Shown piece by piece: positions 5,674 through 29,921 of a stretch of 64,000 bases of DNA. The translations under genes and the position numbers were made by a program. The stretch covers positions 1,386,506 through 1,450,505 of the forward strand of contig OY969767.1 in assembly GCA_963702895.1 (NCBI GenBank), read 5' to 3'. The notes below the pieces were generated by a model, which was given only the letters and a program-made list of their open reading frames with translations, did no database searches and was not told where the DNA came from. This DNA is from an uncultured Elusimicrobia bacterium (lineage in GTDB: Bacteria; Elusimicrobiota; Elusimicrobia; 2-01-FULL-59-12). Each line of letters opens with the position of its first letter. The stretch's first letter is position 1.

Positions 5674-5772
5674 AAACGTCGTAAATGGTAAATGGTGAAG
5701 GAGGAATGGTGAAGAGTTCGATAGAACATAACGATTCACCATTTTCTATTTACTATTTACGCCGTCTGCCGT
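5674..5772. repeat. Palindromic AT-cored repeat, family A copy 1 (arms CGGCAAACGTCGTAAATGGTAAATGGTGAA / TTCACCATTTTCTATTTACTATTTACGCCGTCTGCCG)
   Basis: Imperfect ~100-bp hairpin seen directly in the sequence. Two further copies lie within 600 bp. Confidence 0.7.
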
Positions 5773-5845
5773 CACCGTCGAGCGCCATTCTTCTGGGCGA
5801 CGACCTCGAGTGCGGACGAGCCGGGACCAGCTCTCCTCGAACCCC

Positions 5846-5938
5846 GGGAACGGCAAACGTCGAAAATAGAAAATGGAAAATAGCACTTTCTCATCTCTCT
5901 ATTTTCGATTCTCTATTTTCGCCGTATGCCGTTCCCGG
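5846..5938. repeat. Palindromic repeat, family A copy 2
   Basis: GGGAACGGCAAACGTCGAAAATAGAAAATGG...CTATTTTCGCCGTATGCCGTTCCCGG. Same arm structure as copy 1. Confidence 0.7.
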
Positions 5939-6037
5939 CATCTTGCTCCGGATGGGGTTTGCCTTGCTCCCTTCGTTACCTCAGGGACGGTGAGCTCTTA
6001 CCTCGCCATTTCACCCTTACCCGTCACGACCAACTCA

Positions 6038-6122
6038 GGGTTCAGAGCTCAGAACTCAGAGAGGGCGATGGTTTTATAAGAATCATCCTTATCTCTGAGC
6101 TCTGAGTCCTGAATTCTGAGCT
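6038..6122. repeat. Palindrome built on a CAGAACTCAGA motif
   Basis: CAGAGCTCAGAACTCAGAGAG...CTCTGAGCTCTGAGTCCTGAATTCTGAGC inverted repeat. A related AGCTCAGAACTCAGAAGGCAGAGTTCAGAA lies at 10061-10095. Confidence 0.6.
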
Positions 6123-6164
6123 GGCCGTTCCAGGCGGTGTATTTTCTGTGGCACTTTCCGTTGA

Positions 6165-6266
6165 GAACGGCAAACGTCGTAAATAGTAAATGGTGAATCG
6201 TGAACAGTATTTGCGCATGCTCCTACTCACTATTTTCTATTTACTATTTACGCCGTCTGCCGTTCC
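6165..6266. repeat. Palindromic repeat, family A copy 3
   Basis: GAACGGCAAACGTCGTAAATAGTAAATGGTGAA...TATTTTCTATTTACTATTTACGCCGTCTGCCGTTCC. Confidence 0.7.
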
Positions 6267-6485
6267 CCCCCTGGCTTGCGCCAGGCATCCTGCCCATGGA
6301 GTTCGGACTTTCCTCCCACCTCCGCTCATTCTTGCGCTTCGCGCGGCGATGAGCTACGGTGGGCAAGCCCCCCCTATAAAAAAGGGGCCTGCCCGCCATA
6401 GCTCTGCCGCAGCGCGTTAGCGCTAAGAGCGGGCGGAGGCGGGCGGCGCTCCGAATGCAGCTTTCAAAGAGCGAACAACAAAAGC

Positions 6486-8389: not shown

Positions 8390-8464
8390 TGGTGGGCGCT
8401 ACAGGATTCGAACCTGTGACCCCTGTCGTGTGAGGACAGTGCTCTACCGCTGAGCTAAGCACCC
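8390..8464 (-). tRNA. tRNA-Val (anticodon CAC), CCA encoded
   Basis: The reverse complement folds as a canonical cloverleaf: acceptor GGGTGCT/AGCGCCC, D-arm GCTCAGCGGTAGAGC, anticodon stem CTGTC/GACAG with loop CTCACAC, T-arm ACAGGTTCGAATCCTGT, 3' ACCA. Confidence 0.85.
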
Positions 8465-8979
8465 AAATTGATTCTCAATCACCGTTTGATGACAATGAGC
8501 ATTCAGGGCGAACGCTCCCGCCTACGACTTGCGGGACCAACACGCTATAAGGAATTATGGAAGCACACGTCTACCGCTGTCCCGTCCAATATTTGAGACC
8601 GCCTCTGGCGGGCAGGATCGTCGGGGCAATCCCAACTCGATCGCTCGACGAGGCGATCTCAAACAATAGTAGTGTTGTTGCTTTCAACTCCAATGCTTGT
8701 GAAGGCGTATTTTACTTAATAAAGAGAAATGTAAATGGATAACGTGACCAGAGCGGCCAATGTTTCAACGAGTTGCATACGAAGGAATTATCATTTTCGT
8801 CGGGAGGAAAGACCCTCCCGGAGTATGGAAATAAGTGTATTTGATACGTGTTACAGGGAGACTTCTTCATTGAAACAAGAACGTAAATTATAGTCCCAGC
8901 CCTAACGCCGACAGACTTCTATTTTTCGTGGGTATTATGCTCAAACTAAATAGTACCGTCGAAGTCCCTTTGAGCAGGG

Positions 8980-9318
8980 CTAGTTGGGCCAGCGAATCAG
9001 CTTACCCGGTAATGGGAAGACTGGCTTTTTCGACCACGCTTCTTGGAAGGCACGGGCATAGGCTGAGCCGCGCTGCTGAGGGAGGGTGATCAGAATAACG
9101 CTGATATTCGGAAATTTCTTAAGTGCCTTCGCAGCGGATTCGCTGAAATCTTGATCTTTTGTGAGAATGCAAATAACCCCGGCAACGGCAGCCATCTTTA
9201 CCAACTCGCCGTTGCTCAATCTTTGCCAGCCACGTTCTGCGGTGGTTTCAGCAGGAATTCCTAGCGATTGAAAGATCGGCGCTAGTTGGCGAGGTAGATT
9301 GTGATCAAGCAGCCACAC
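8980..9318 (-). CDS. DUF5615 (PIN-like/Mut7-C) toxin of a DUF433-DUF5615 TA pair
   Basis: 112-aa ORF overlapping the upstream DUF433 gene by 14 nt. Lies in a low-GC islet between two tRNA genes. The same pair recurs at 30010-30606. Confidence 0.7.
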   Translation of the reverse strand: MWLLDHNLPRQLAPIFQSLGIPAETTAERGWQRLSNGELVKMAAVAGVICILTKDQDFSESAAKALKKFPNISVILITLPQQRGSAYARAFQEAWSKKPVFPLPGKLIRWPN

Positions 9319-9535
9319 GATGCATCTGCTGGGCGGCGAATTTGAGGATTTCAGGAACGGATTCTGGGGGAAATCCCGGATAATCGTCGGCGATTTCCTG
9401 TGCCAACATGCCGATAGAGAGACATTCCAAGACCTGGGCTACGGAGATACGCGTGCCTTTAATAACAGGCTTTCCTCCAAGCAGGTCCGGGTGATGGACG
9501 ATCCATTGAAACCCTTTATAGGGTCGAGTTTGCAT
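9305..9535 (-). CDS. DUF433 antitoxin-like protein
   Basis: 76-aa ORF, ...GGKPVIKGTRISVAQVLECLSIGMLAQEIADDYPGFPPESV..., typical of DUF433. Confidence 0.7.
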   Translation of the reverse strand: MQTRPYKGFQWIVHHPDLLGGKPVIKGTRISVAQVLECLSIGMLAQEIADDYPGFPPESVPEILKFAAQQMHRVAA

Positions 9536-9979
9536 AGCTATATTCTACCTTTTCAAGGAAGCACTCTAGCCAACCGCTGTTTCCGAATCTCAATTACTTA
9601 CGTCACCAAGTTGCGTCACTAGGAAAGAGACTTGGGGATACGGCAGGATACCAAGATTTCTTACTCCTCAATGATGGTCTACCTAAAGATACCTCAGAAA
9701 TAATTTAAATAAATGCCTGAGGATGGCACTCTACCGCTGTCCCGTCCCCCATACCCGCACCCCGAAGGGGAGCTGAAAGAGCCGGGACAATCCCAACTCT
9801 ATGGCTCGCGAAAGCGAGCTTCAACAGTGGATGGGATGAGTGAACGCCCCGCGCTGCGCCCAATTTCTGCTTTCTGCTCTCTGCTTTCTGCCCTGAATTT
9901 ATTGGGCCCGCCAGGACTCCCCGCCACTACGTCATGGCGGGCCCGCCAACGTCTTAGTGGCGGGGAACCTGGGAAAGAT

Positions 9980-10053
9980 TGGGCCCGGAAGGACTTGAAC
10001 CTTCAACCCTCCAGTTATGAGCCGGACGCTCTAACCGATTGAGCTACGGGCCC
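9980..10053 (-). tRNA. tRNA-Met (anticodon CAT; elongator type or tRNA-Ile2 precursor), no encoded CCA
   Basis: The rc GGGCCCGTAGCTCAATCGGTTAGAGCGTCCGGCTCATAACTGGAGGGTTGAAGGTTCAAGTCCTTCCGGGCCCA forms a cloverleaf with a 1-72 G-C pair and a CAT anticodon. Confidence 0.8.
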
Positions 10054-14020: not shown

Positions 14021-15405
14021 GAGTTACCATCAAAAGTGCTGGAAATAGGTTCTGAGGCAAGGAAGGATTTGCCTTAGGAATAGATAACGGCGTACCCTTT
14101 CGTTGAACCAAACAAACCTGTCCGTTCAAGCGGACAATAAACGAAAAGGAGACGCCGTTATGAAGACCATTGTAAACGTGAAAGGCTGCGAACACAAAGA
14201 GAGCATGCTGGATTATCTGGCCCGAGAGGGAGCGCGCAAAATGCTGGTGGAAGCCCTGGAGGAAGAAGTGACGATGTATCTGGAGCGGCGGCGCTATGAG
14301 CGGGCGAAGAGCCTGGAGAAAGGCTATCGCAACGGAACCCGGGAGCGGAAGGTGACAGTTTTGGGAGCAGGTTTAAAGCTCTCGGTGCCGCAAGTCGACG
14401 GGGGCGAGTTTGAGTCGAGCATCTTGCGTCCGTACCAGCGGCGAACCGAGGGTGTCGAGGAGTTATTCCGGCGGCTGTACCTGGAGGGGCTCTCGAGCCG
14501 GGACTTTGAGCCGGCGATGCGAGCACTGATCGGGGATGGAGCCACCTTATCAGCCAGCACGATCCTGCGTTTATCGGCGAAGTTTCAATCGGACCTGGCC
14601 ACCTTCAGCCGCCGGGACTTATCCGAAACGCGTTACGCCTATGTCTGGGCGGACGGCGTGTACTTGAAGGCCGGGCTGGAGAAAGAGAATACGGCGCTTT
14701 TAGTGTTGGTTGGCGTGAATGCCGATGGGAAGAAAGAGCTGATTGCTCTGATGGAAGGCTACCGGGAGAGCCGGGATTCCTGGAAGGAAATCTGGCGAGG
14801 GGTGGCGGAGCGTGGAATGCCCGCTCCGCTCTTGGTTATCGGCGATGGGATGGGTGGGCTCTGGGAGGCGGTGGCGGAGGTCTATCCGACCGCCAAAGAT
14901 CAACGGTGCTGGAAGCACAAGATGCGCAACGTCGTGGATAAAGTGCCGAAGGCCAAGCAAGAGGAGGTGCTCAACCGTCTGCGCGTAGCGTATCAGGCGG
15001 AGCGTCGAGAAGACGCGGAGAATCACCTGGCCTTGTTAGCCGAGGACCTGGAGATTCGCTACCCGAAGGCGGCGGCTTGTATCCGGAAGGACCATGACGC
15101 CTTGCTGCGCTACTTCGACTTTCCGAAGGAGCACTGGGTGCATTTAAAGACGAGCAATCCGATCGAGTCGGTCTTCGCGGGGGTCCGATTGCGAACTCGC
15201 GTTGTGCGGCGGTTTCAGAAATCTCGCACGGGAGTAGCGTTCGTCTACAAAATCATTGAACGCCTGGCGCAATTCTGGAAGCCGATTGAGAAGCCGGAAT
15301 TGGTGATGGGATTATTCGTCGAACGAGAGAAGCTGGAGGTAGCGGCCTAAGAGACTTTCGACCAAAGGGGCGCCGATCGATTTCCATCACATTTGACTAA
15401 AGCTC
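14021..15405 (+). mobile_element. IS256-family insertion sequence (1385 bp) flanked by 9-bp direct repeats TGTGTCCTG (14012-14020 and 15406-15414)
   Basis: Imperfect terminal inverted repeats GAGTTACCATCAAAAGTGCTGG (left) and rc GAGCTTTAGTCAAATGTGATGG (right), 15/22 identical. Single transposase ORF inside. Identical 9-bp flanks. Confidence 0.7.
14103..15350 (+). CDS. IS256-family (mutator-type) transposase
   Basis: 415-aa ORF (likely start MKTIVNV at 14160) with conserved IS256 transposase regions (…YLERRRYER…, DDE-containing core …VWADGVYLK…ALMEGYRES…). Confidence 0.85.
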   Translation: MNQTNLSVQADNKRKGDAVMKTIVNVKGCEHKESMLDYLAREGARKMLVEALEEEVTMYLERRRYERAKSLEKGYRNGTRERKVTVLGAGLKLSVPQVDGGEFESSILRPYQRRTEGVEELFRRLYLEGLSSRDFEPAMRALIGDGATLSASTILRLSAKFQSDLATFSRRDLSETRYAYVWADGVYLKAGLEKENTALLVLVGVNADGKKELIALMEGYRESRDSWKEIWRGVAERGMPAPLLVIGDGMGGLWEAVAEVYPTAKDQRCWKHKMRNVVDKVPKAKQEEVLNRLRVAYQAERREDAENHLALLAEDLEIRYPKAAACIRKDHDALLRYFDFPKEHWVHLKTSNPIESVFAGVRLRTRVVRRFQKSRTGVAFVYKIIERLAQFWKPIEKPELVMGLFVEREKLEVAA

Positions 15406-15522
15406 TGTGTCCTGGGCCGTCGATACCCATATTTTATGGGTCTTTTAGGCCCGTATTTTTGGCCTTCCCTACTATATATTCATTGCCGGAAACCCCCTAT
15501 TATTAAGGAGACTAGATCTTCG

Positions 15523-18500
15523 ATGATTCCCTTTATATTTCAGCGATTTGTCGCACTTCTCCTGGTCCCCTCCCTTCTCGTGGACCCGCTCACGGCGGCT
15601 GCCTTATCCAATGAAAGTCCGAGACCTGTTGACTTGGCTGCCGCACGCGGCGTCAATTTCCTCAACCAAGCCTTAATGGAGAGGCTGACAGGCGCTGAAT
15701 TCCATCCTGCCGCATCGCCAAAACATATCAGTGTCGTGAAGGATTTAATTCAAAGATTGAGGGAAGCCGCGAAAGGGAAAGTTCAGGGCGGGTCGTCAAC
15801 CGATCATCCGTCCTCTGGTAAGGTCGGCCATGGCGATACCGCAGGCTCCGTTAACGGAAATGGTATGTCGCGGCGTGATTTGCTGAAGCAATCTGCGCTG
15901 GCTTTGATGGTTCAGAACCTTCCGGCAGCGGCTCAAGCGGCTCTCGAGGCAGTCCCCATGAAGAGGCGCACGGCTTTTATCCAATTTCTCAGTGCCTTTC
16001 AACAAACACTTGAAGCCTTGCCGCGCGAGGTGAGAGACTACCATCAGGACCCCGACCTCCAGATGGGTGCCGGCAAATTCGGAGAGTTGGCAGACGCGAT
16101 CAGATCCTTGCGCGCTCAAGGAGCTTCGTCAGGGTTCAGCTCGGGCGCGTTGGGGGATTTGCAGGACATCTTTAAATTTTTGCAAGGGTCCGTTCGTCAA
16201 CAGGTGGCGTCTCCGGAGTGGCAGACCCGATTTGCTCCAGAGACGCTCAGGATGCTCCAACTCGCAGCCTCGTCACCGAATGACTTTGAGCTGGAATATC
16301 GTGTCGGCCTCTCCTGCCGCTGGCTGGAAAGCAACGGTATACAGGTAAGCCGTGAGGCAGCCCTGCAATCCGCGCGCGACGCTGTGGTGACGGGGCAAGA
16401 GCCACTTGGCGACTACCTTCAGAAGTGGCTTACGCCGCTCGTTTCAGAGCGTGTCGCGCCTACGGTCGCGCAGGAGGCGCAGCAATTGGCTCGCCTCGGC
16501 GCAAACCCAATTCAAACGGCGGATGCTTTTGCCGTGGAATTCATCCGTGAGTTCCAAAAACATCCTGGCAACGCTTTCTGGCCGAATCCGGATAAATTCC
16601 AGAAATATGTTCATGGCCAGGCGCGGCTCAAGGCGTTAGATGCGTTCCGCAGCAGCGTCAGCGAATTGGGGACGACCCTGGCGAAGGCTGGGGTCAGAAT
16701 CGACGGCGGATTTGTGTCAGCATACAGCAATGACGACTGGGGTTTTAACAAATGGATGAAGGATCCCGCTGCCTATATCCAAGAGATCCGAAGAATCACT
16801 TGGACTTCGCATGTCCGCGGAATGATGTTACAGCGGCTCGAAGAAAAACGGTCACGCTACAACCACGTCGCCTACCAGCGATTGAGAGACAGCATCTTTG
16901 ACATCCAGGACGAGGGCCTCGATCTGGACGCGGACCCCGACACGCTGTTCCACCAGCTCGAGTCCGCCATGGACGCGGAAGGAATCAACCGTCTCCCGGC
17001 AATTCCCGCGAACCGCGTGCCGCCTCCAATGTCCCAGGTTAAGGCACCCGGCGGCGTGCCCGCGGATCTGGATTCGCTCGTCAAGGACATTGCCGAGAGA
17101 GCGACAGCGACGGATGTCGAGGTCCGGGTCTTTATGGATGCGAAGGGGGCCGTCCGGTTTTTCGACATCCGCCCCTTGGATCCAAACGTGAGAGGCTTGC
17201 TGAGGACCCTGAGAGGCGCAGACCTCCCGTTCCTGAAGAAGAGGAACGGCCGCCCAGGGTGGCGTTACGGAATGCGCATCTCAAAGGGGACGCCTGCCTC
17301 AAAGATCAAATCGCGTCTCTTGTCGGGACTCGATTCTGGCCTCTGGCTGGACTTTTACACGGCGCCGCAGCATGACGGATCCCGCCTCCTCCCAGCTCAA
17401 GAGCCGCAAGCGAGCGAACCACTTTTAGCGCCCCGGATGAGCATTTTCAGCGGCCCCGAGTGGTTTGAACGGTGGGGCGCCCCCCTGGAAAGCGTGATGG
17501 TGGGCGCTCTGGCCAGCGGGATCCCGGCGCTTCTGCTTCTCCTTGTGGGCGTGGACTCAAGTGCTCCGACTGTCCTAAACGAGGCCGTCTTGTTGCCCGC
17601 GATGGCTTTGCTGATCTTGACCTTGGGCCAATGGTTGGCCGTTGACCTGTATAGCGGGCGGCATCCTTTGGATCGAAGGGAAGCATGGGACCGGTTGATC
17701 CGAAATGGCACATGGCTTCGGACTCCGCCGCAGAAGGTGCACGGTTGGGCCACGCGCATTGCCCTGGGCGCTGGCGCCGCGGCGCTGCTCCTGCAGGCCA
17801 CGCCGGTACTACCCCTCAGCCTGGCGTCCTACCTCGCCGTCGTCGCAGGGACCTACACGCTGACCCATCTGGCCGTTCATTTCCACCACAATCTCACCCA
17901 CGACAGCGACTTGCGCATGAGCCTTCGTCCGGCCGTACGACCTCCGCTCAATATCCCGATCATGGAATCCCTAAGAGAGCGATGGAAATCGATTTTGATC
18001 GCCGCGCTGTCTCCTCTTCCGTTTTATCTCATCCCCAGAATTATACAGAGACTCATGAAATGGCCGTTTCCTTCGGATCTGGAATTTATGATCACACTTC
18101 TGTTCGGTTTTGCGATCGGCATGGCGGGCATGATCATCTATGAAACAGCCGCGCATACGCTGAAATCTCAACGTGGGGCGGGGACCGAACCTTCGGGACC
18201 CTTGGTGACCCAGGGCTTATATCAATGGGTCCGACACCCTATTTACATGGGTTATTTCCTTGCCTACGGCGGAATCCTGTCGATGTTCAGCTCTCTGATT
18301 ACCACCGTGCCCTTATTTGTCGTTCTCCCTTCGGTGGTCTACTACTGTGTCGACAAAGCGGGCGCGGAAGAGACCCACTTGCATGCTCGGTTCGGCGATT
18401 TATATCGTGATTACGCGCGCCGCACCCCTTCCTTTTTCCCCTTCCGGCTGCCACGGCTCCGTCTGATGTCGGCAACGGCTCCCGCGGTCGACGGCCAACA

Positions 18501-21500
18501 CGAAACTCAAGACCCGGATTCCGAAATCGCCGTTGAGGAGAAGCCTCTCGTCATCATGGCCGAAGATGACCGCCTGCGCCGGCCGCGTATCTTTGACGAG
18601 ATCACAAAATTCCTTGGTGATGCCTATGCTTATCGCGTCTGCAACGATGGGCTTGAAGCGTGGAAAGTCATTGAGGACGCTATAGCATCCGGCCGCCCCA
18701 TTGCCCTTCTCGTCACCGACATCTCCATGCCCGGAATTTCGGGATCGGAATTGACGGCACGTCTGCTCGCGTTGCACCCATATGTCCCCATCATCATTCA
18801 TACCACCGAAGCTATGGACGACCTCAGACAAGCGTTCATGGACCCCCGCGTTCGAATCGTTGCCAAAGAAAATTACGCTGGCCTTCGAAGCGATATTGCG
18901 GAACTTCTGAAGTTGCCCCCCAACGCCGCGGTCGGTAGCGCGGATTCAGCTCCGATGCCGCAGGATGACCCATCACCCGCCAAAAAGACAACTGAACCGG
19001 CCGCGGGGACTCCTGCAACTCCTGAGCCATCGTCCACAGAACCACAAGCATGGTTGTCGTCGTTCCACGACCAAACCGAAGTCTGGGTGTTCTTCTTGAT
19101 CGGCGCCTCCCTGCTCGCGGCCCAAGGTCACATCTTCCCGGTGACCGCGGACTCCGAGACGATGCCTGTGGGTCTTCCCGTGTTTCTTGGATTGGGGCCC
19201 CCTTACAATTTCATTGTCGGTGCTTTTGATCGGGCCCTCCGCCGGATTTTTCCACCTCTGTTTTCGGGACCGGCTGAAGCGTTCACAAATCTGACGCCGG
19301 AATGGTTTCGAGCGTCCTACAGCGCTTGGCTGCAAACTAAGCGAGGCCGTGCGCTCACGACGGAGGAAGAAACTGAAATTGATCGGTTTGCGCGACTCTT
19401 GGCTCCCCCGCTGAATCCCATACGCGCAGAAAAACCGACCTGGAAGGACGAATGGAACTCTGCGTACCGGTACATTTTTTTAGGGCAACCTTTGGACCTC
19501 AAGTCAAAGCGCGCACCAGCGGAAAACGCGACCTCCCTTGGTGAATTGAACGACGCGCTGAAGATTATCGACGGCTACCCCCGCCTATGTTTAACGGCTG
19601 CCCCCTTGGCGTTTAAGATCCTTCAGGCGCGGGGCTTTTCCGTTCGAAGGGTGAGACGGACGAGATTCGAGGGGATCGTTGAACACGAGTATGTCGAAGT
19701 CGAAGTGGCGGGGCAGTGGCTCATTGTTGATTTGGTGGCGAGCCAATTCGGCATCTTGCAAACCTGGGGTGTTGTCGCGATCCCGAAAGAAATCGCGACA
19801 TCCGAGCCTGCCGTGCAGATCTACACGTACGGGGAAGCGGTCGTAAAGGAACAGGCCTTGCTGCCATCCAACCCTGAGACCCCAGGTGTTAGCGATAGCC
19901 GCGATCTCATCGGACTTGACGCGGTACGGTTTGTTCTATCGAATCAGATGGGACGGAGACTCCCCGAGACCACCATTCAAGAATTGACCAGCTACATCGA
20001 AGACTTCTTAAGGGCGCATCAGCTGGAATGGTTGCTGGACCGTGCCAGCATCACGGAGACACGACAGGGGGTGCGGGACAGCACCTCGGAGCTCCATGCA
20101 GGGCACCAAAACCAAAACAGCCTCGACTGGGTCGAACCCGCGCTGGCTGCGCGCGGCGCCTCCAGGGACACGATCTACCAGCTCAGGTACACTCTGCCTG
20201 GACGATCTCCTCGTAACACTCACGCCGTTTATGAAGCGGTGTCTGCTCTCCTGTTGACGCTCGTGCCGGATGACGTGCCAGTCTATCGCTGGATCGAGCC
20301 CGCCCATGCTGGCCTCCCGGGCGGCGACAGCATGCGAAGCTATTGGGCCGTTGCAACGGCCCAAAACAACAAAGACTTTGCCCATTCAGGCCGTATCCTT
20401 CTTAAAAGCTATTTTGGACGCCTCAGGCAGACAGGCGTCTTGGTTGACGATACGGGCGTTGACTTCCCAGCCATCTCTCTGATCCATGATCGAAGAAACG
20501 GCCTTGTTTCGCATGAGGTTGTAACTCCTCAACTCGTGCAACCTGGTCCCACCGCATCCACGCTTTCCTCTGCTTTCTCAATACTGGCGGTCTGGTTGCC
20601 CATCCTGATCGGCGCCTCCCTGCTCGCGGTCCAGATGGCATCCGGCCAGTTCTTCCCGGGAGCCGCACAACCAGAAGCCCTGCAGGCGGGCGGCGCGGCC
20701 ATGGGGCTGGGCTGGCTCTTCTTGCGTTTGATGGATCTGGTCTCTGCGCCTGAAGGACGCCACGTGGATCCAAGCCCGTCCAGGACGGCGAAAACCCAGG
20801 CGGCCGATCTGGGAATAGTCTTCAAGCCCCATCTGCTTGAACAATTGCGATATGCGCTCCAAGGCCCCCGTATCGAAGTTTTGAAACGGTTGTTGGAGTG
20901 GGCGGAAGGGTCCGAACTGCGAGGATTGTATCTTCGCACTACCCTGATGCAGCTTGTCGAGGACAATCCCTCATTCGGGGATCGCTTTCATCAAAAAACG
21001 CTTGCCTTGTTCCGGGAGCTGCGCTCGACACCGACACGTTCGACGGTGCAGTACCTGGCATCCCTATTCACGAAAGACAGTACCGCAGGGGTATGGCTAA
21101 AAAACAACCGGATATTCTTGTGGGACGCCACTCACACCTTCGAAGGTCGAATCAATGTGCGGTATTCCCTAAGCTCCGGCCAACGTCAAGCCTTGGTCGG
21201 CGATCTTCTTGTCCCGGAGTCCGGCTCCACCTTCCTGCTGGAATCGGTCCGGGAGGTCTTGAACGACAACCGTATTGGCGATGACGATTTGAACTATCCG
21301 CTGCAGGTAACAATGATTCAGGAAGGGCTTCGTCAAAAGGTTTACGCCGTGTTCGTCGAATTGAAGGACGGCCGAATGGCGCCGTTTGTCATATCGGTGC
21401 CCCAGAGCGTGAAGCAGAACAACATGGTCAGGAAGGAATTCGAATACTTGCGCCTCCACATAGGTGATCCGCATGCTTTGAGCGTCCTTCGATTAGGGTC

Positions 21501-22467
21501 TGTCAAGCTGGGCGGCACTAAATTCTATGTTTACAGCAGTCTTTTTCTTGACCGATATTCCGAAGTGGTCTACCACCACCGGAGGGCTGGTCTCTTTCAA
21601 AGTAGCCCGGGAGCGTTTCTAGCAACATCCTCGCAGCCACCCCAAACGGTGAGGCTGACCCCCTACGACGCAGCGCGAGTTCTTTCCAAAATTGTCGCCG
21701 TCCTGGTTCATTTTTATGATCCGGAAAAACGCACCATGCTGGGCGGAGTTGATGTGCCTGCCGGAGATTTCAACTTCCCGGATTCCGCGTTCCTGGATTT
21801 CGAGCCGCGAACAGCCACCGTCATTGACACAGACCAACCGGTGAAACTGATCGCCTGGCGGTCCATCGCCCATGGGGTCGACCCAGCAGCATTTATTGAT
21901 TACGTCCTGAGCCTGCGCTATTTGAATTCCAATCCCAGGCTCATTGATTTTGACAGCAACCTCAAAATCGGTGTCCTTGCAGGATTGCGAAGCGGGCTGA
22001 TTGCGCGGTACGGATACGAGGAAGGCCAGCGAATACTAACACGCTGGTTCCAGGCGTATGCTGATGCCGTTGATCAGGACCGGTTTATAGAAAATGGATT
22101 TTTCCAACTTGATGCGCTGCACGGATTCCTGGAGCAGCTCACGGCTCCCAACTCCGGGAAAGCCGGCCCTCGACCCGAGCCGGCGGTTCGCTCTTCCCGC
22201 GCCGGCAAGCTTATCGGCATCCTCTTGATCGCTGGTGCCGCGGCTGCCGCACGTCACGCTGTCCCGGGAATCATCGACATCGGCGCGGGTTCCGATTTGA
22301 TCGGCCGGATTGCCGGGACAGACCTGTTCGCTGGCTCGGCAGTTACTCAGGCCGGCGGCTTGGGCGTGGCGTTGGGCTTGCTCATGGCTTATGGCCTGGG
22401 CGCGCTGAGCCGCCGCTTGGCAAAGAACCATCCCGCTCGTCAACGGGCCTTGGGGCGGGCGGCATGA
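15523..22467 (+). CDS. Giant mosaic protein 1 (~2314 aa): signal-like leader, ICMT-like methyltransferase, CheY-like receiver, transglutaminase-like domain, four hydrophobic-hairpin modules
   Basis: Uninterrupted ORF. Start taken at MIPFIFQRFVALLLVPSLLVDPLTAAA, with GGAG 9 nt upstream. ICMT/PEMT motif …YQWVRHPIYMGYF…EE..L…FGDLYRDY (≈18196-18440). Receiver D…TDISMPGISG…K (≈18541-18915). C/H/D transglutaminase-like core (≈19571-19760). C-terminus …TQAGGLGVALGLLMAYGLGALSRRLAKNHPARQRALGRAA. Confidence 0.8.
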   Translation: MIPFIFQRFVALLLVPSLLVDPLTAAALSNESPRPVDLAAARGVNFLNQALMERLTGAEFHPAASPKHISVVKDLIQRLREAAKGKVQGGSSTDHPSSGKVGHGDTAGSVNGNGMSRRDLLKQSALALMVQNLPAAAQAALEAVPMKRRTAFIQFLSAFQQTLEALPREVRDYHQDPDLQMGAGKFGELADAIRSLRAQGASSGFSSGALGDLQDIFKFLQGSVRQQVASPEWQTRFAPETLRMLQLAASSPNDFELEYRVGLSCRWLESNGIQVSREAALQSARDAVVTGQEPLGDYLQKWLTPLVSERVAPTVAQEAQQLARLGANPIQTADAFAVEFIREFQKHPGNAFWPNPDKFQKYVHGQARLKALDAFRSSVSELGTTLAKAGVRIDGGFVSAYSNDDWGFNKWMKDPAAYIQEIRRITWTSHVRGMMLQRLEEKRSRYNHVAYQRLRDSIFDIQDEGLDLDADPDTLFHQLESAMDAEGINRLPAIPANRVPPPMSQVKAPGGVPADLDSLVKDIAERATATDVEVRVFMDAKGAVRFFDIRPLDPNVRGLLRTLRGADLPFLKKRNGRPGWRYGMRISKGTPASKIKSRLLSGLDSGLWLDFYTAPQHDGSRLLPAQEPQASEPLLAPRMSIFSGPEWFERWGAPLESVMVGALASGIPALLLLLVGVDSSAPTVLNEAVLLPAMALLILTLGQWLAVDLYSGRHPLDRREAWDRLIRNGTWLRTPPQKVHGWATRIALGAGAAALLLQATPVLPLSLASYLAVVAGTYTLTHLAVHFHHNLTHDSDLRMSLRPAVRPPLNIPIMESLRERWKSILIAALSPLPFYLIPRIIQRLMKWPFPSDLEFMITLLFGFAIGMAGMIIYETAAHTLKSQRGAGTEPSGPLVTQGLYQWVRHPIYMGYFLAYGGILSMFSSLITTVPLFVVLPSVVYYCVDKAGAEETHLHARFGDLYRDYARRTPSFFPFRLPRLRLMSATAPAVDGQHETQDPDSEIAVEEKPLVIMAEDDRLRRPRIFDEITKFLGDAYAYRVCNDGLEAWKVIEDAIASGRPIALLVTDISMPGISGSELTARLLALHPYVPIIIHTTEAMDDLRQAFMDPRVRIVAKENYAGLRSDIAELLKLPPNAAVGSADSAPMPQDDPSPAKKTTEPAAGTPATPEPSSTEPQAWLSSFHDQTEVWVFFLIGASLLAAQGHIFPVTADSETMPVGLPVFLGLGPPYNFIVGAFDRALRRIFPPLFSGPAEAFTNLTPEWFRASYSAWLQTKRGRALTTEEETEIDRFARLLAPPLNPIRAEKPTWKDEWNSAYRYIFLGQPLDLKSKRAPAENATSLGELNDALKIIDGYPRLCLTAAPLAFKILQARGFSVRRVRRTRFEGIVEHEYVEVEVAGQWLIVDLVASQFGILQTWGVVAIPKEIATSEPAVQIYTYGEAVVKEQALLPSNPETPGVSDSRDLIGLDAVRFVLSNQMGRRLPETTIQELTSYIEDFLRAHQLEWLLDRASITETRQGVRDSTSELHAGHQNQNSLDWVEPALAARGASRDTIYQLRYTLPGRSPRNTHAVYEAVSALLLTLVPDDVPVYRWIEPAHAGLPGGDSMRSYWAVATAQNNKDFAHSGRILLKSYFGRLRQTGVLVDDTGVDFPAISLIHDRRNGLVSHEVVTPQLVQPGPTASTLSSAFSILAVWLPILIGASLLAVQMASGQFFPGAAQPEALQAGGAAMGLGWLFLRLMDLVSAPEGRHVDPSPSRTAKTQAADLGIVFKPHLLEQLRYALQGPRIEVLKRLLEWAEGSELRGLYLRTTLMQLVEDNPSFGDRFHQKTLALFRELRSTPTRSTVQYLASLFTKDSTAGVWLKNNRIFLWDATHTFEGRINVRYSLSSGQRQALVGDLLVPESGSTFLLESVREVLNDNRIGDDDLNYPLQVTMIQEGLRQKVYAVFVELKDGRMAPFVISVPQSVKQNNMVRKEFEYLRLHIGDPHALSVLRLGSVKLGGTKFYVYSSLFLDRYSEVVYHHRRAGLFQSSPGAFLATSSQPPQTVRLTPYDAARVLSKIVAVLVHFYDPEKRTMLGGVDVPAGDFNFPDSAFLDFEPRTATVIDTDQPVKLIAWRSIAHGVDPAAFIDYVLSLRYLNSNPRLIDFDSNLKIGVLAGLRSGLIARYGYEEGQRILTRWFQAYADAVDQDRFIENGFFQLDALHGFLEQLTAPNSGKAGPRPEPAVRSSRAGKLIGILLIAGAAAAARHAVPGIIDIGAGSDLIGRIAGTDLFAGSAVTQAGGLGVALGLLMAYGLGALSRRLAKNHPARQRALGRAA

Positions 22468-22518: not shown

Positions 22519-25500
22519 ATGCATAGGACCATCCGAAGATCCGCTGCCGTCCTTTTGATTGTCTGCTTGGTGGTCGATCCGGCAACGGCGGCCGCTTTTT
22601 CGAGCAGCCCCCCCCTCTTGCCGCGGCCGTTGGCCAAAAGGTGCCCTCCCATTCCGCGTTTGAAACCCAAGCCCTGACTTTGGTCCTGGCGGCCAGCATC
22701 TTCTTCGGCGCGGCGCTCCATTCTCCCGGGCATCCGCCGGTGGCCAAGACCGTCGCGATGCTTCCGGCGGAAGATCGGACCCGCTCCCTGGGCGCCAGGC
22801 GAAAACGCAGGCCCCGGGGTCCGCGTTCTGCGGACGATGTTGCGAGGGCTCGTCCCCAACGGGTCAGATCAACAGCGGCAGATTTTGTGAGGCAACAAGC
22901 CGCTGCCGGTCGCCTCGCCGAACTCCCCTATCGTCACAAGCTGATACTGACGGAACGATTCATCAAAGGGACATCTACGAAGAGGTTTGCTGTTCTTCAT
23001 GACATGACAGTAACGGCGGTCATAAGCGCAACCAGAACAGCCTTATTGGAATTGCGTCGATTGGTCAAGCCCGCCGCAGTTGAGCCCGCAGGATCTGGAG
23101 ATAACGGTCGCGCCGCACCCGCGCCTTCGGTCACGCACGCAGCAGACGCTGGAAACGCTGCCGGAACATCTCTTCCGGCAATTTCTCAGGATCAGCAATC
23201 CATCCTCGTCATATACCCTAACCTGAAACTCCTCCGCATCATGCATCCACCTGTCAAATCTGCATTGGATGATAACGGGCAGGACAGCCTGAGCCAGTTG
23301 ACCGTACCTCAAGACCCTGAGCTTTTGGACAAATTGGGCATCGATCCTACAGAGCTTCACATCGTCATTGCCGGATCAACAGTGGATGTGCTGAAGATCC
23401 CCTCCAGCGATTGGTGGGTTTCTCACGACCCTCAAGTAGAGCAAGTCAAATTTCTTTGGATTCTGGTGCGCTCCTTGACCAACGAAAAGGGTTTGGTCGT
23501 GATCTCCCCGTGGAGTGATATCACCGATGCTCGCACGCAACTTCAAGCACTGAAAAAGGCTTATTCCTTGACGGGGCGAATAGAACGCTCCCCGCAAAAT
23601 GACTATCCGACGCGCGACAAAGACGTCATCGTACGGCGGCGGGTGCGAGTCCTGGCCGTTGGGCCTGACTCGGACGCACCGTCGGAAACCGCGTTTCAAC
23701 TCTTGAGAGTCAACACGAATCCAAAGTTGAAAGAAAAGGCAGATTTGGACTGGAAAGTCATCCAAACCCTCCAGACCTTCCAGGGAGACAGGCTCTCAGA
23801 GTTATGGGATGTGCTGAAGGCTCAAAAGATCCAATGCGATCTGGACAGCTTAAGGGCCAGCTTAAAGCGTATCACGACTCTCACAAATGCTGCACCTAAT
23901 GAGATTCAAAGGAGCAGGGAGTTTGATCGGGGCCCAAAGAGGCAGAGGACCCGCTTGCCCGCACAGAAACCGCTGATCTTTAAATCGGACTTGTCGGAAG
24001 AAGCCCTTGCTGCCTACACCGAAAAGGTTCCGGTTTTCGAGCGTCAGATTACGTACCAAGAGTTTGTGACACAGAACTATGACCCCGATCGCCGCTTGGA
24101 GGAGATTACACGTCAACTTCCTGGGTGGAACTCCCCTGATCGTGTTTCCATCCCGATACTTGTTAACCATCTTCTGAAGAATGCATTTTTCCCGTTTCCG
24201 GACCGGTCCAATGACCGGCAAGCTCACGTGTCCATGGAAATCAGCATGCTTGAGCCGTCGGATCCAGAAGAGCCCAGGGTCGTGAATATCCGCATCCGTC
24301 AACCTTCGAGCACGCAGGCGGATTGGAATCGGTTGGAAGTCAATCATCGTGGATGGGTGAATCATGATCTCTTTTATTTCGCTCGCCCCGAATTGCGCGG
24401 CGACGAAGGCGCTCTGAGACCCGCTGGTCCTTCAAATCCAGCCGGAACAGGTCATGGGCTTTTGTTAGTCGCCCGGGTCTTGGCTGAGACACCTGCCTTA
24501 TTGAAATTCACGCGCAGTTCCGATCCTCCATACTCCTTACAAACCGATCTGTACATCGCGTTAAGGGACCGCGGGACGCCCCGCCCGAACGTCTCGGCCG
24601 GCAGACTGGCGATCTGGCTCCCCTTCCTGCTTGTCGCGGCCGCCGCAGCACAGATCGTGCTAGGCCACTTCTTGCCGGAAGCCGGTCAGCCGGCCTTGCC
24701 TGTCCTGCAGGCCGGCTTCTCGAGCATTCTCGGGCTGGGAGCATTGCTGACAGCGGCCTTTCAGCCGCGATACGCCCCGGAAGGCGGCGGGTCAGGCTCC
24801 GGAGATAGCGCACCGGCCAGCGGTGTTGCCGCAACGGACGTCGTGAGCAAGCTGCAAATATATGGCGTCCCGGTTGAAACGGATTCGCGCGGTACTTACG
24901 TGTCCCCGTCGCAAATGCCCCAGGCACCCTGGGTGATGGACCGCATGCGGGATCCGGAACAAGGAGCCCTCTATCCCATCCATGATATCCCCTCCCTGAC
25001 GCTGAGTTTTCCACTGCATGAGCTCCCGGCACTTTCCAGGGACAGCCTTTCGATAAACTCAAGCGGTGTGTTCCTCGGCTTCGTAAATGAACTGGATCAT
25101 CCTGTGGCCATTAAAGTTTTGAACCGAGATCAGGGAGATACGGAACTCATGAACGCTCAAATCCTTGGCCGGATTGGGGGCAACCCCGCTTTCTACGGCG
25201 TGATTCGCCTCTCCGACGGAGGGCTGGCCTATGCCATGCAGGCGGTTCGCTGCCTCCCCCTGGCCGAAAGCCTCGATTCGCAAGACAAGCAGTACTTGGC
25301 TGAACGTGAGCTCCTGAAAAAACGCGCGATGACCCTGGCCGGCATATCGCTGATCGCATTTCGCAGAACACCGGAAGGCCACGCCATCGGCATCGACGCG
25401 GGGGATGCCGGCGTCGTCGATGCAATAACCTACGGCCGTTACATCGCTGAACGGACCGCGGCCGCCCCCAAACGGAACGTCTGGATGCCGATCCTGATCG

Positions 25501-28500
25501 CCGTGAGCGCGGCCGCGCACATGGCGCTGGAGCACCTTCAATCTTCGATTCTTGGGTTTGGTCTGCTCAACGGACCGATCGACATGGCCGGGTTAGATTG
25601 GTTCGCCGAAGCGATGGTCTCTCAGGCGGGCGGGCCGGCGATCGCGCTGGGCTTTCTCGCTTGTGCTTTGTTTCAGAGGCTATGGGCGCCGGCTGATCGC
25701 GGGTACGGCTCGGGCGACACCAGCCCTACCACTACACCAGCCGAGAATGCCACTTCGCCTGCCCCGACCTTCCGGTCGGCCGGGGAATTGTTCGGAAGCA
25801 CTGTTCTCGACAGGCACCCGGGTGCCGCGTTGGGTGATCCGGCGCCGGAAGCAACCCCCTCGCCAGGATACACCCGGCCTTTGGACCAAGCCACGTTGGA
25901 TCGGGTGGCCGCTCTTTTGGAACGCCGGGGACTTGGTTTTCTGCGACGCGTTGTGGGCATCACCAGGGTCCAAGTGACGGAAAAGCACGCTGCTCTTTAT
26001 CTGATTAGGTCCACCATCCAACACCTTCTATTCACGAAGTCGATTTTCCAGGAAATTATCGTTCCGGATTTCGAGACCAACAAGATGCTCACGAGGATCC
26101 TCGCCCGCCTCCATGAACTGTTCGACCCTGTGACTCTGCTCAACAGCTTGTCGCAAACGGATGTCTATCAGGACTTGCCCGAACCGATCCGCCAGCGCTT
26201 GGCGGAGGCGCGCAAGCAGTTACCGCCTTCAAGAACGATGTCGGAGTCGAATCAAGACACGCTCCGGCTCATCGTCACAATCGGACTCTTGCACGAGCTC
26301 GGCAGGGTCATCTGGGATTGGATGCGACAGCTGGGGGATGATCCGCCAGGCATTGACGAGGAGGAACTGGCTGCCGACAAGCTGAACGAGTGGAGACGAC
26401 TGGCAGACGCGGCGGACCCGGACCTCTTGTGGGTCCGCGCCGCACTCAACGCGTACGGGCCGGGCCGACGCGAAGATGGCAGCAACACTTTTCCCGCCCA
26501 GCTCTTTGCCGAAAAGTTCGCCGTGTGGGCGTATCCGCCATTGTCCCGTTACTTTGGCGTGAAGCTTTCCGAAAAAGAGACCCAATTCTTTGACGAGCTT
26601 GCCATTTTCCTTCAAGCCACGACGGCGCAGCCCGGCCCCATTGTGCCGGCCGGCGTGTCAGACTTCTCGGTTGACATATTCATCGCCGGCGTGGTGCTGG
26701 ATTCCCCCGAGGGGGAGAAGGTCGCAGCGGCGAGCAAGGCGTATCATGCGGCCAAGGAGGTCGTGACGCGATTACAGAATCAACACCGTTCCAAAGGTCA
26801 CTCACCTATTCACGGGGACAGAGACCTCGAGGAAAGGACTCTTGTCGCCCGTACCCGGGACATGCAAACACGAGAGCGTGAACTGCGCGAGGCTTTGGCC
26901 GCTGCCGCCCATTCGGAGCAACCGCATTACTTCAATGGCGTGCTGAACGCGCTGGTGAGGTTGTTTGTCGCCGGCCAATTGCCCGCGGACGACCACACGT
27001 TCGAAGACTTTCTGCGGCAGAACCGGGAGGTCAAAGAGAGCCAGGATGCGTGGATCCAGGATCACCGGGACAGCGAAGAGGGCGTCTTCAGCCTTAAGAC
27101 ATTACGGTTCGTTGCGTGGAAAGCCGTTCATGCAGCTCTATTGACGAAACTGCATCGGGATAATGGAGAGGCCATGTGGCACGCCCTGCAAAGAGTCGAG
27201 CAAAGGCTTAAGGCGTTACCGAAAAAGGAACGAAGCGAGCTCATCAAAGACAAAGCATTCATTGAAGGTGTGAAGAGCTATGCCCGCAAGGCTGGCGCCG
27301 ATGTGCACGCAGAGTGGAACAGTACCTCTCAGGAAGGCATCGCCGGCGTGGTCATAGGACCCTCCCAGACCAACCGATCAGCTGTCGCGAGGAGCGACGC
27401 GGCCCCCGCCGCTGGCGATACGGCAGGCGATGAGAAGGTCAGCATCTCTCTGGATGGGGCCGCCACCCTAAGGACCCGCTCTAGCGCGCTCGCCATTCAA
27501 GATCTGTTGCACCCTGCCATTCCCATCCGTGTGATGAACGACGAAGCGGGACGGCTGGTCTCCGGTCGAACACAACTCTGGACGGTCTGGGACACTCCAT
27601 TGGATAAGTTTGAGACCGATCTCGACTTTCATATTTTGACGTATCTCAAGACTCTTTTGGAACGTTATCCGGGCCGCCGGATCACGGTCGTGGATTGGGG
27701 GTGCGGATCGGGGAAGGCGATCAGCGAACTTGCCCGCCTAGCCAAAGAGTTGAGCCCCAACCTCCGACTCATCGGTTATTCGGACCAGATTTACCGTGAT
27801 TGGAATGAGGCTCCGGAGAATGTCACTTTCATTCTGGACACAGCAGACCAGCTGCCTGGTTATTTCAATGATGGAGACATTGACCTCGTCGTCAGTCATC
27901 ACGGATTCTCCAAGCTCGGGGCGGACTATATTGGGCACCTGCGCCAGATGCACGGCCGAATGGCACCCCATGGAATCATTCGCCATCACAATGCGGGCTG
28001 GAGCATCAGAATCCATCAGGCACTTCCCGAGTACAGCATCCGATACTTTCCCTCGAAATGGCGGCGTCATGTGATTGAATTTGCCCCACTCCTGGTTCAT
28101 TTAGACCCCGCACTCGCGTTGGACCAAGAGGCCCGGAGAGGAGAAAAGCACGCTTCTCCTACCCCAAAGGCAAATGAGACTCAGACTCAGCCCGCGCCCT
28201 TTCTTCTGCAGGCGATTGAACACCATCAGCCAGACGACACGTTTCCCCTTATCCATCTTCGCTCCAGCAAGACGAAGGAACCTTTCCAAATACGACTTCG
28301 GCAATGGAATCCTTTGGATTTTAGTATTGAAGCTTCGGGCCGCCCCATCGGGGAGCTCAGGCTGAAACGGCTGTCCAATGCATTGGAGCTCAGCAGGATT
28401 CAACTGTATGAAAGATATGAACGCCGCGGTATTTCGGACGCCGTCATCCAGTGGCTTTCCGGTCAATTGGATGAGCGGCACCCCGCGCTCGAGCTCTCCA

Positions 28501-29921
28501 CCCGCAAAGCGAATGTGCGGTCCAGTCTCGTGCGCCATTTCAGCGACGTGCAAATACGAACCCACGCGGGATACGTGCCCTTATCAGATCTTACAGGCCG
28601 GCTCCAGTTCGGCTTCAAGCGCCTTCGACGCTTCCGCGCCATGCAGCCAAAACAGCCAATTGACGAACCATCGGTTGCCACGCCGACATCCGACATCAGC
28701 CTCAAGACCACCAGCATTTTTGTCGCAGGGATCCTGCAGGCCCCCCTGTGGGGGTATGGTCTGAGCCATATTCTTAGCGGGACTCCGGGTCTTTCCATGG
28801 GACACCTGCTCATTGGCGCAGGGTGGTCTTCGCTTCCCATCGCGACAGCTCTTTTTCTGACTGGCGGCTTTCTGGCGGCCGTGATTCCACTATCCCCTCC
28901 GAATCCTGCGGACAAGGTCCGCCTGTTGGGCTCTCAAGGGAAATGGCCGGGGGATGCGCTCCTTGAGGAGCTGGTCCGACTCGTGCAAAAAAAGCCGTCT
29001 ATGAAGCAGCAAGATATTCAGTGGAGGGGTTACCGGATCACCGAGATCCTTTGGCAAATTCTCGATCAGCACCTGGGTTTTGACGGCCACACCATTATCT
29101 ACCCGGCCGGCGGGGCTGATGGATTGCCATCACGCTTTGCGGACACGATTGTGCTCAATCGCGACAGACTGGAGAATCAAGCACGCGAGACTTTCAGTCT
29201 GCCCAAGCCTGGGACACACCGTCTCACCTATCTCACGCTGGACGCGGCCAGTCCTGCCAATTACAACCAAGTCCGCTCCGACATCAAAACCCCGCAAACA
29301 ACGTTACTGCTCAAGGGTCTCGAATGGATGCTCCCAACATCGAAGTTCTTTGTTCGGCGTTTGCGCGCGATTTGTAATGTCTTGCAACCGAATCGGGTGA
29401 TCATCCTGCGCCGTGAGGATGCCGCTGCCGTGGTGCCTGTTCTTGCCGGCCTGGGCTATCGAGAGCGGACGGATTGGATTGATCGGACGCGCAAGAGAGT
29501 TCTTGAAGCGATCTTTAACTATATGTCCATATCGGTGCTGGATGAGGTTCAAACGCCATCCGGCCCCACGTTCATGATCCCCAATACAATCAGACTGTTT
29601 GAAAGGAATAAGGGTCAACAGACCATGGCCGATCGAACGCCGCGGCATCGGGCCAATCGAAAGACAATCGCGCTTTTGGCCGCGGCGACACTCGACGGCG
29701 GGCTCTTGGCCTGGGGCTGGGGCCACGTTCTTGACGGAGCGCAAATGCCGCTCGTCACCCAGGCCGCGTTCCTGGCGATGCCTACGTTCTCGTTGAGCAC
29801 CGCCGCAGCGCTCTTCCTGGCCGGCGGCGCGCTTGTGTCGATCATAACGAAACAGACTCGTATATCGAGAGAATTTAACCGCCCATCTCGCACACCCAGC
29901 CCGTTTCGCCAAGCCGCTTAA
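22519..29921 (+). CDS. Giant mosaic protein 2 (~2465 aa if the frameshift is corrected): leader + class-I SAM methyltransferase + hairpin modules; +1 frameshift at poly-C 22608-22615
   Basis: The leader MHRTIRRSAAVLLIVCLVVDPATAAAFS is in frame 1 (ORF 22477-22677). The body is in frame 0 (22641-29921). Inserting one C in the C8 run restores a continuous ORF (…AAAFSSSPPPLAAAVGQKVPSHSAFETQ…). MTase motif ITVVDWGCGSGKAI (≈27680-28000). Confidence 0.7.

Follow-up and report, generated by a model that had tools for sequence, protein, structure and literature searches.

Giant proteins whose divergent enzyme domains, methyltransferases and peptidases among them, are set apart by many transmembrane segments have been described from the Omnitrophota as 'Archaeovorin-type' giants (West-Roberts et al. 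2023, bioRxiv 10.1101/2023.11.21.568195). That preprint also reports CheY-like receiver, GGDEF and HATPase_c domains inside giant multi-transmembrane proteins, and states that most segments of such giants carry no sequence-level annotation and need structure prediction. Here we describe three giant genes arranged in tandem in a 64-kb stretch of contig OY969767.1 (64,000 nucleotides, hereafter the window) from an uncultivated Elusimicrobiota bacterium, and in particular the first of them, Giant 1, which joins an ICMT-family (isoprenylcysteine carboxyl methyltransferase) membrane methyltransferase and a receiver that looks competent for phosphorylation in one polypeptide.

As in the Archaeovorin-type giants, numerous transmembrane segments in Giant 1 separate several enzyme domains. 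Compared with that group, which comes from the Omnitrophota and spans >10–85 thousand amino acids, the giants of the window belong to the Elusimicrobiota and are about ten times shorter (2.3–3.5 thousand amino acids). No SecA domain was detected in them, whereas a divergent SecA_DEAD domain is a hallmark of the Archaeovorin type, and an ICMT-family domain is absent from the domains named in the consulted passages of the preprint (bioRxiv 10.1101/2023.11.21.568195). Giant 1 is a lineage-specific variant of the giant membrane-punctuated multi-enzyme protein, with a putative regulatory role in cis for its receiver.

Receivers with enzymatic outputs are a long-known class that includes CheB, PleD/WspR and RpfG. 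The Giant 1 receiver is similar to these in its complete phospho-acceptor pocket, its fusion to an enzyme and the lack of a DNA-binding domain, but it is unlike them in being internal and membrane-tethered, with long flexible linkers and no kinase nearby in the window. A first-pass annotation, made from the letters of the window and a list of their open reading frames (ORFs), had called the combination unusual; it is uncommon, but the enzymatic-output regulators are a precedent for it. Another precedent is provided by the receivers in Omnitrophota-type giants, as described in the preprint (bioRxiv 10.1101/2023.11.21.568195).

The ICMT family (PF04140; Ma-MTase 4a2n, Tribolium 5v7p, RhlM) resembles the Giant 1 methyltransferase domain in Pfam score, S-adenosylmethionine (SAM) motifs and placement of hydrophobic helices. 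Its members are free-standing, whereas the Giant 1 domain sits inside a 2,300-residue protein with the receiver directly after it. The bacterial enzymes of the family use amphiphilic carboxylates; RhlM, which methylates the rhamnolipid carboxylate, is the only bacterial member characterised, the bacterial functions are almost unexplored, and the family network presented with RhlM was built with length cut-offs of 150–330 residues (PMC11069360).

A membrane methyltransferase and a receiver in one polypeptide

All residue numbers for Giant 1 are counted from ORF position 15436 (Table 1). Residues 858–1002 score above the curated Pfam cut-off for ICMT (PF04140; 32.2 bits on the subsequence and 27.6 on the whole protein, cut-off 24) and, on the subsequence, above those for PEMT (27.7 bits, cut-off 25) and DUF1295 (27.1 bits, cut-off 20.4), which bears out the ICMT/PEMT-like domain proposed in the first-pass annotation. 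The NCBIfam model isopcys_mtase aligns over positions 45–188 of its 190, with the models for MddA and the lipid A methyltransferase LmtA ranking next as relatives, and the solved ICMT structures are matched (Tribolium 5v7p, E = 3.4e-6; Methanosarcina 4a2n, E = 1e-3; also 5vg9). The SAM-binding motifs RHPxYxG and EE..L..FG..Y..Y, in which the roles of the conserved His and Glu have been described for the family (PMC11069360), are intact, align to those of the solved ICMTs and lie within a polytopic membrane domain. As an equivalog of protein-S-isoprenylcysteine O-methyltransferase, the isopcys_mtase model (NF040696) gives 36.9 bits versus the 160 required; because the score lies so far under this cut-off, the domain can be taken as a superfamily member only, without an assignable substrate. 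Residues 858–1002 truly belong to the superfamily of integral-membrane SAM methyltransferases, but cannot be assigned as an orthologue of the enzyme that acts on prenylated proteins. The core is preceded by a polytopic block (residues 687–857) that has no family match; Kyte–Doolittle peaks lie at residues 687–705, 718–736, 785–803 and 852–870.

The methyltransferase is separated by 34 codons from a CheY-type receiver, and the receiver by ∼219 codons from the Cys/His/Asp motif discussed below, in agreement with the spacings of about 30 and 220 codons noted at first. Response_reg (PF00072) scores 38.7 bits on the subsequence and 32.6 on the whole of Giant 1 (cut-off 30.2), so that both the receiver and the methyltransferase stand above their Pfam cut-offs. 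Fourteen PDB receivers match, the best being 8pdc and RcsC, which are hybrid-kinase receivers. The D1044/D1045 pair and the phospho-acceptor D1095, whose conservation had been singled out for checking, are present and align with the PDB receivers, while T1124 and K1144 are placed by sequence motifs; all residues of the phosphoryl chemistry are thus in position. Low-complexity linkers of ∼34 and ∼52 residues flank the domain on either side. With both domains in one chain and no DNA-binding output domain detectable, phospho-control of an enzymatic or membrane module is a reasonable reading. The earlier proposal of two-component regulation without a helix-turn-helix output holds as to the missing output domain; the control itself is our inference, and the window contains no kinase.

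The SAM site and the C-terminus of ICMT enzymes face the cytoplasm in published ICMT structures. The receiver follows the SAM-binding C-terminal end of the methyltransferase, and the description of the giant as apparently exported is not supported for this part of the chain.

An orphan module with a probable transglutaminase-like core

Further downstream, residues 1264–1480 form a module in which the first-pass annotation saw a transglutaminase-like cysteine protease core at 19571–19760. The candidate triad strings RLC1385LTAA, EH1417EYVEV and LIVD1432L do exist, although the start given was one base out of frame (19570 is correct); on its own, such a bare C...H...D pattern is not significant. 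Pfam gave no match at E <= 10 for residues 1263–1714 or 1333–1465, and phmmer with the single module sequence found nothing in the PDB. When a five-sequence profile was used for an hmmsearch of the PDB, no transglutaminase-like match was obtained, and the one match of low E, to a designed repeat protein, covered the helical subdomain. An exhaustive HMMER search with residues 1263–1714 against 1.84 billion cluster representatives returned only four relatives of the module (P0002, P0003, P0004 and P0008), which are 33–39% identical to Giant 1 in the trimmed alignment; these four are all the homologues found among some 15 billion proteins.

The case for the fold comes from structure prediction and from a profile comparison. 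An AlphaFold2 model built from the homologue alignment (mean predicted local distance difference test score (pLDDT) 75, predicted template modelling score 0.75) places C1385 where a helix begins, H1417 where one strand begins and D1432 close to the end of the strand that follows, in blocks of pLDDT 78–96; this order and secondary-structure context are canonical for the transglutaminase-like superfamily. Foldseek found no PDB match at E <= 0.001. Its best match was the C3 domain of the Pasteurella toxin PMT (E = 2.6e-3, probability 0.91), and TM-scores were <= 0.29. Almost all of the first 35 matches are nevertheless papain/transglutaminase-like (PMT C3, a putative cysteine protease of Cytophaga, vasohibins, transglutaminase 4xz7, arylamine N-acetyltransferase (NAT), SseI, TglA and 3isr), and CPR-C4 appears at ranks 43–44. 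By hhalign, the module aligns to a Transglut_core-like region of Giant 3 with E = 0.0054 and with all three triad residues in register. Giant 1 also has the canonical H-x-[YW]-V-E-V context, from which its closest relative, P0002, differs by Thr for Val (H-L-Y-T-E-V). We consider a papain/transglutaminase-like fold probable for the module.

An unlikely but serious alternative is that the Cys/His/Asp core is a chance motif and that residues 1264–1480 form a non-catalytic binding or scaffold domain. The absence of any Pfam or transglutaminase-like PDB sequence match is consistent with this, as are the Foldseek values, and so is the conservation of the triad: among Giant 1 and the four homologues, a very small sample, Cys is kept in 4/5, His in 2/5 (and in one more shifted) and Asp in 4/5, the remaining sequence having Glu. 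P0008 lacks both the Cys and the His, P0003 lacks the His, P0004 has its His one position away, and P0002 is the sequence with Glu for Asp; the invariant columns of the alignment lie mostly in the N-terminal helical subdomain. Against a chance motif stand the recurrence of one superfamily through the Foldseek matches, the position of the modelled Cys at a helix N-terminus with His and Asp on consecutive strands, the register with Giant 3 and the context of the His. The transglutaminase-like core thus has weak support from the predicted structure and the hhalign register, and none from a Pfam or PDB sequence match. The label 'cysteine protease' is not established, since it would rest on a fold call from a model of mean pLDDT 75 and on Foldseek E >= 2.6e-3, with the triad absent or shifted in 3/4 homologues; a protease is also not implied by the fold, because the superfamily includes deamidases, acetyltransferases and transglutaminases as well.

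Compared with the transglutaminase/papain-like superfamily (PF01841; PMT C3, vasohibin, NAT, SseI), the likeness of the module consists in the predicted Cys at a helix N-terminus followed by His and Asp on successive strands. The differences are the lack of a profile match, the variable triad, the additional conserved N-terminal helical subdomain and the preceding transmembrane hairpin. In Giant 3, residues 1376–1445 (34976–35185) reach 22.3 bits for Pfam Transglut_core against a cut-off of 23 and show a clear C...H...D arrangement; this region has no PDB sequence match. A candidate copy of the module in Giant 2 was rejected (hhalign E = 0.5).

Membrane segments and modular organization

Three predicted transmembrane hairpins divide the downstream half of Giant 1 (Table 1); by hydropathy, their paired hydrophobic segments lie at residues 1216–1263, 1714–1769 and 2262–2324. 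Their first-helix motif, W-L-P-I-L-I-G-A-S-L-L-A, is repeated within Giant 1 and recurs in Giant 2 by BLASTP. Short acidic loops join the helices of each pair, and basic flanks follow the second helix, which fits hairpins that bring the chain back to the membrane face from which it came. Together with its hairpin, the orphan module is also found free-standing as a 309-residue protein (P0003), conserved as a unit, and in P0008 hairpin and module are fused to a HATPase_c domain; both genes lie in housekeeping neighbourhoods that are uninformative. Since hairpin and module occur alone or in another fusion, Giant 1 looks like a concatenation of individually anchored modules.

Table 1. Coordinates of the features of Giant 1 and of other elements of the window
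Feature	Position	Strand	Giant 1 residues	Remarks
Class A RNase P RNA	5742–6383			minus strand; 642 nt vs 367-position Rfam model, 123 bits
Lower-GC stretch (0.515)	8390–10053			minus strand; between tRNA-Val and tRNA-Met
IS256/Mutator-family transposase	14103–15350	+		Pfam Transposase_mut 245.8 bits; directly 5' of the three-giant block
Giant 1 ORF	15436–22467	+		2343 codons, uninterrupted
N-terminal signal- or anchor-like hydrophobic segment	15523–15606	+		MIPFIFQRFVALLLVPSLLVDPLTAAA; hydropathy
Polytopic membrane block 5' of methyltransferase core	17494–18006	+	687–857	∼4–5 hydrophobic helices
ICMT/PEMT/DUF1295-superfamily integral-membrane SAM-dependent methyltransferase domain	18007–18441	+	858–1002	Pfam, NCBIfam, PDB; motifs YQWVRHPIYMGYF, EETHLHARFGDLYRDY
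CheY-type receiver	18541–18915	+	1036–1160	D1044/D1045, phospho-acceptor D1095, T1124, K1144
Transmembrane hairpin 1	19072–19224	+	1213–1263	VWVFFLIGASLLAAQGHIFP...; hydropathy, flanking charges, BLASTP
Orphan module	19225–19875	+	1264–1480	helical subdomain, then predicted papain/transglutaminase-like alpha/beta core (nt 19570–19785)
Domain 2	19984–20562	+	1517–1709	uncharacterised; motifs PDxVPxYR, AGLPG, SxWGVG, STxGELR, NAxxLxH
Transmembrane hairpin 2	20575–20742	+	1714–1769	hydropathy, BLASTP-shared motif
C-terminal soluble region	20743–22200	+		∼485 residues, without detectable family
Transmembrane hairpin 3	22210–22407	+	2259–2324	then basic tail ending -GRAA
Giant 2 ORF	22641–29921			2426 residues; tandem, 3' of Giant 1
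Giant 3 ORF	30851–41371			3506 residues; tandem, 3' of Giant 2

The hairpins read as punctuation between soluble modules in all three giants, at 19072–19224 and 20575–20742 in the window, at residues ∼656–706 and ∼947–1010 of Giant 2 and at residues ∼1790–1835, ∼2140–2195 and ∼2800–2845 of Giant 3. Two types can be distinguished: type A (WLPILIGASLLA..Q...G.FFP) is shared by Giant 1, Giant 2 and the P0002 C-terminus, and type B (LLQAPLWWWGLSHLLGGPQTPLLTQAAFL..P..PLG) by Giants 2 and 3.

Domain 2, which lies between the orphan module and the second hairpin, recurs in P0005, P0007, P0009, P0010, P0013 and P0016, several of which are 1,200–3,000 residues long. Its AlphaFold2 model is confident (pLDDT 83). 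The Foldseek matches are non-significant (best E = 0.12); entries of the ADP-ribosyltransferase fold recur at the top (Vis toxin, an ART-ARH toxin, Tpt1 and iota-like toxins), and the Arg, Ser-Thr and Glu motifs occur in the same order as in the R-S-E pattern. For the C-terminal ∼485 residues, Pfam at E <= 10 returned only noise and phmmer against the PDB nothing meaningful.

The N-terminal ∼630 residues have no Pfam or PDB match, and the N-terminus itself resembles that of Giant 3 (BLASTP, 13/26 identities, E = 0.031). The segment MSRRDLLKQSALALMVQNLPAAAQA (15865–15951, residues 144–172) resembles a canonical twin-arginine (Tat) signal peptide and is located ∼115 residues inside Giant 1, past the N-terminal signal-like segment, and only a weak GGAA precedes its ATG. 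All three giants end in -AA (GRAA at 22453–22467, RQAA at 29907–29921 and RAAA at 41357–41371), and P0002 ends in HAA. The same ending is found in 2/22 other genes of the window and may reflect a tendency of the whole genome, not something peculiar to the giants.

Proposed working of Giant 1

On balance, we lean towards Giant 1 being a lineage-specific protein of several separate modules tethered to the inner membrane, in which the receiver, after phosphorylation by a kinase or phosphorelay, modulates a neighbouring module. Because the ICMT SAM site and C-terminus face the cytoplasm, the receiver would be cytoplasmic, and the downstream modules would share that face, provided that every hairpin crosses the membrane twice. 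D1095 would be phosphorylated by a histidine kinase or phosphorelay that, as the window holds no kinase or Hpt domain, must be encoded elsewhere. Since the receiver sits between flexible linkers, it would most likely modulate its neighbour by phosphorylation-dependent dimerisation or docking and not through a rigid helix. The first candidate target is the adjacent methyltransferase, whose C-terminal SAM-binding helix lies 34 residues away; this enzyme would methylate an amphiphilic carboxylate or lipid of the cytoplasmic leaflet, and its substrate need not be a prenylated protein. Residues 1264–1480 keep a Cys-His-Asp arrangement on their probable papain/transglutaminase-like fold.

Several observations weigh against this proposal. 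An orphan histidine kinase had been suggested as something to look for in the genome, and in the ORFs of the 64-kb window no HisKA, HATPase_c, histidine kinase or Hpt domain was found. Nothing in the structure of the flexible linkers points to the module that the receiver would control. The topology derives from simple hydropathy, and hydrophobicity is weak (1.3) in the second helix of every hairpin. For the orphan module, the statistics behind the transglutaminase-like fold are weak and the homologues do not conserve the triad. Finally, the exact architecture of Giant 1 appears to be a singleton among the proteins and contigs searched, two of the searches being lossy. Searches of 5.8 billion proteins with full-length Giant 1 and with the ICMT–receiver segment gave nothing beyond Giant 1 itself or a single unrelated receiver. 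With alignment A2 as the profile, P0004 was the sole match, and the absence of others there is weak evidence because the word-indexed tool is evidently lossy. Scanning the GTDB genomes with the orphan-module profile gave no relatives, scanning the JGI metagenomes with the ICMT–receiver segment gave one unrelated ICMT fragment only, and a literature search on ICMT–receiver fusions found nothing relevant.

Two other candidates were considered and set aside. A GHKL ATPase, as a possible phosphodonor, was read by eye at 24153–24515 (Giant 2 residues ∼505–625), with LLKNAFF as the N-box and GTGHGLLLVARVL as the G2-box; it has no Pfam match at E <= 10, BLASTP against the HATPase_c region of P0008 gave E = 0.96, and the reading was dropped. 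A role in anti-phage defence was likewise rejected, PADLOC giving no match for any of the three giants.

If it is true that the receiver controls the adjacent methyltransferase, Giant 1 would provide an ICMT-family enzyme under two-component regulation. With this locus, the design of the membrane-punctuated multi-enzyme giant extends beyond the Omnitrophota to the Elusimicrobiota, at an experimentally tractable size, and two uncharacterised domain families are added, one a hairpin-anchored module of probable transglutaminase-like fold and the other a domain common to many giant proteins. It does not answer a long-standing question.

We think it rather doubtful, and somewhat more so than a chance motif in the orphan module, that the receiver does not regulate the enzymes of Giant 1 and serves instead as a phosphate sink, as a localisation module, as a tethered intermediate of a phosphorelay or as a pseudo-receiver whose only use is in protein–protein contacts. 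The long low-complexity linkers on both sides and the lack of an evident partner domain would fit such a role, and the best matches of the domain are receivers of hybrid kinases or phosphorelays (8pdc, RcsC and P0019). The intact residues of phosphoryl chemistry argue against a pseudo-receiver, and where a receiver is covalently fused to enzymes, the arrangement usually signifies control in cis.

It is very unlikely that Giant 1 is a membrane polyprotein whose papain-like module cleaves near the hairpin-flanking linkers and so releases anchored enzymes. Each module does have its own hairpin anchor, one of them stands alone elsewhere (P0003), and the Omnitrophota preprint proposes cleavage of giants by embedded peptidases (bioRxiv 10.1101/2023.11.21.568195). 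However, there is no evidence of cleavage sites, the catalytic status of the module is doubtful, and the idea is pure inference. More improbable still is its extension to all three giants as phospho-regulated membrane polyproteins, in which the receiver would gate cutting by the papain-like module at the hairpin-flanking linkers and free the anchored enzymes (ICMT-like, ADP-ribosyltransferase-like and others) on the cytoplasmic face.

Integrity of the gene and its host

Stop triplets occur at 0.0255 per position in the window, and a reading frame of 2343 codons is therefore far beyond chance. GC1 > GC2 < GC3 holds in each 600-nt window of the ORF, the pattern also seen in dnaK and lepA. Translation probably starts at M30 (nt 15523), which gives 2314 residues; an AAGGAG site lies ahead of this codon and the public gene call P0001 has the same length, both of which point to M30 as the start. 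An identical protein is present in the 2.72-Mb NCBI contig and in a separate Logan assembly. We therefore regard it as highly improbable that the 7-kb ORF arose by misassembly or artefactual fusion, or is a gene in decay beside an insertion sequence, as its singleton architecture and the IS256-family transposase immediately upstream might suggest, given the uninterrupted codons, the coding GC pattern throughout, the two separate assemblies and the intact key catalytic motifs in two domains.

In the Logan contig (L001, position 7144), the gene after Giant 1 starts 52 nt past the Giant 1 stop, corresponding to 22519 in the window. This position is not in the frame of 22641, the first start listed for Giant 2, a discrepancy that points to a different start site or a change of one base between the assemblies.

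The giants are embedded in an ordinary bacterial chromosome, with murE, ftsI and rsmH upstream and rpoD, dnaG, dnaJ, dnaK, hrcA, lepB and lepA downstream. The DnaK protein is 85–86% identical to those of two Elusimicrobia metagenome-assembled genomes and ∼70% identical to those of other Elusimicrobiota, by which the host is assigned to the Elusimicrobiota.

Other features of the giants and the window

Giant 2 has a class I methyltransferase. In addition to the transglutaminase-like region, Giant 3 has a NagB/6-phosphogluconolactonase-like domain, several class I methyltransferase matches and a weak GNAT match. From its length relative to the model, the RNase P RNA (Table 1) carries roughly 270 nt of insertions. 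The lower-GC stretch holds two small overlapping ORFs (8980–9318 and 9305–9535) that, judged by eye, may be a putative DUF433-type antitoxin and its toxin.

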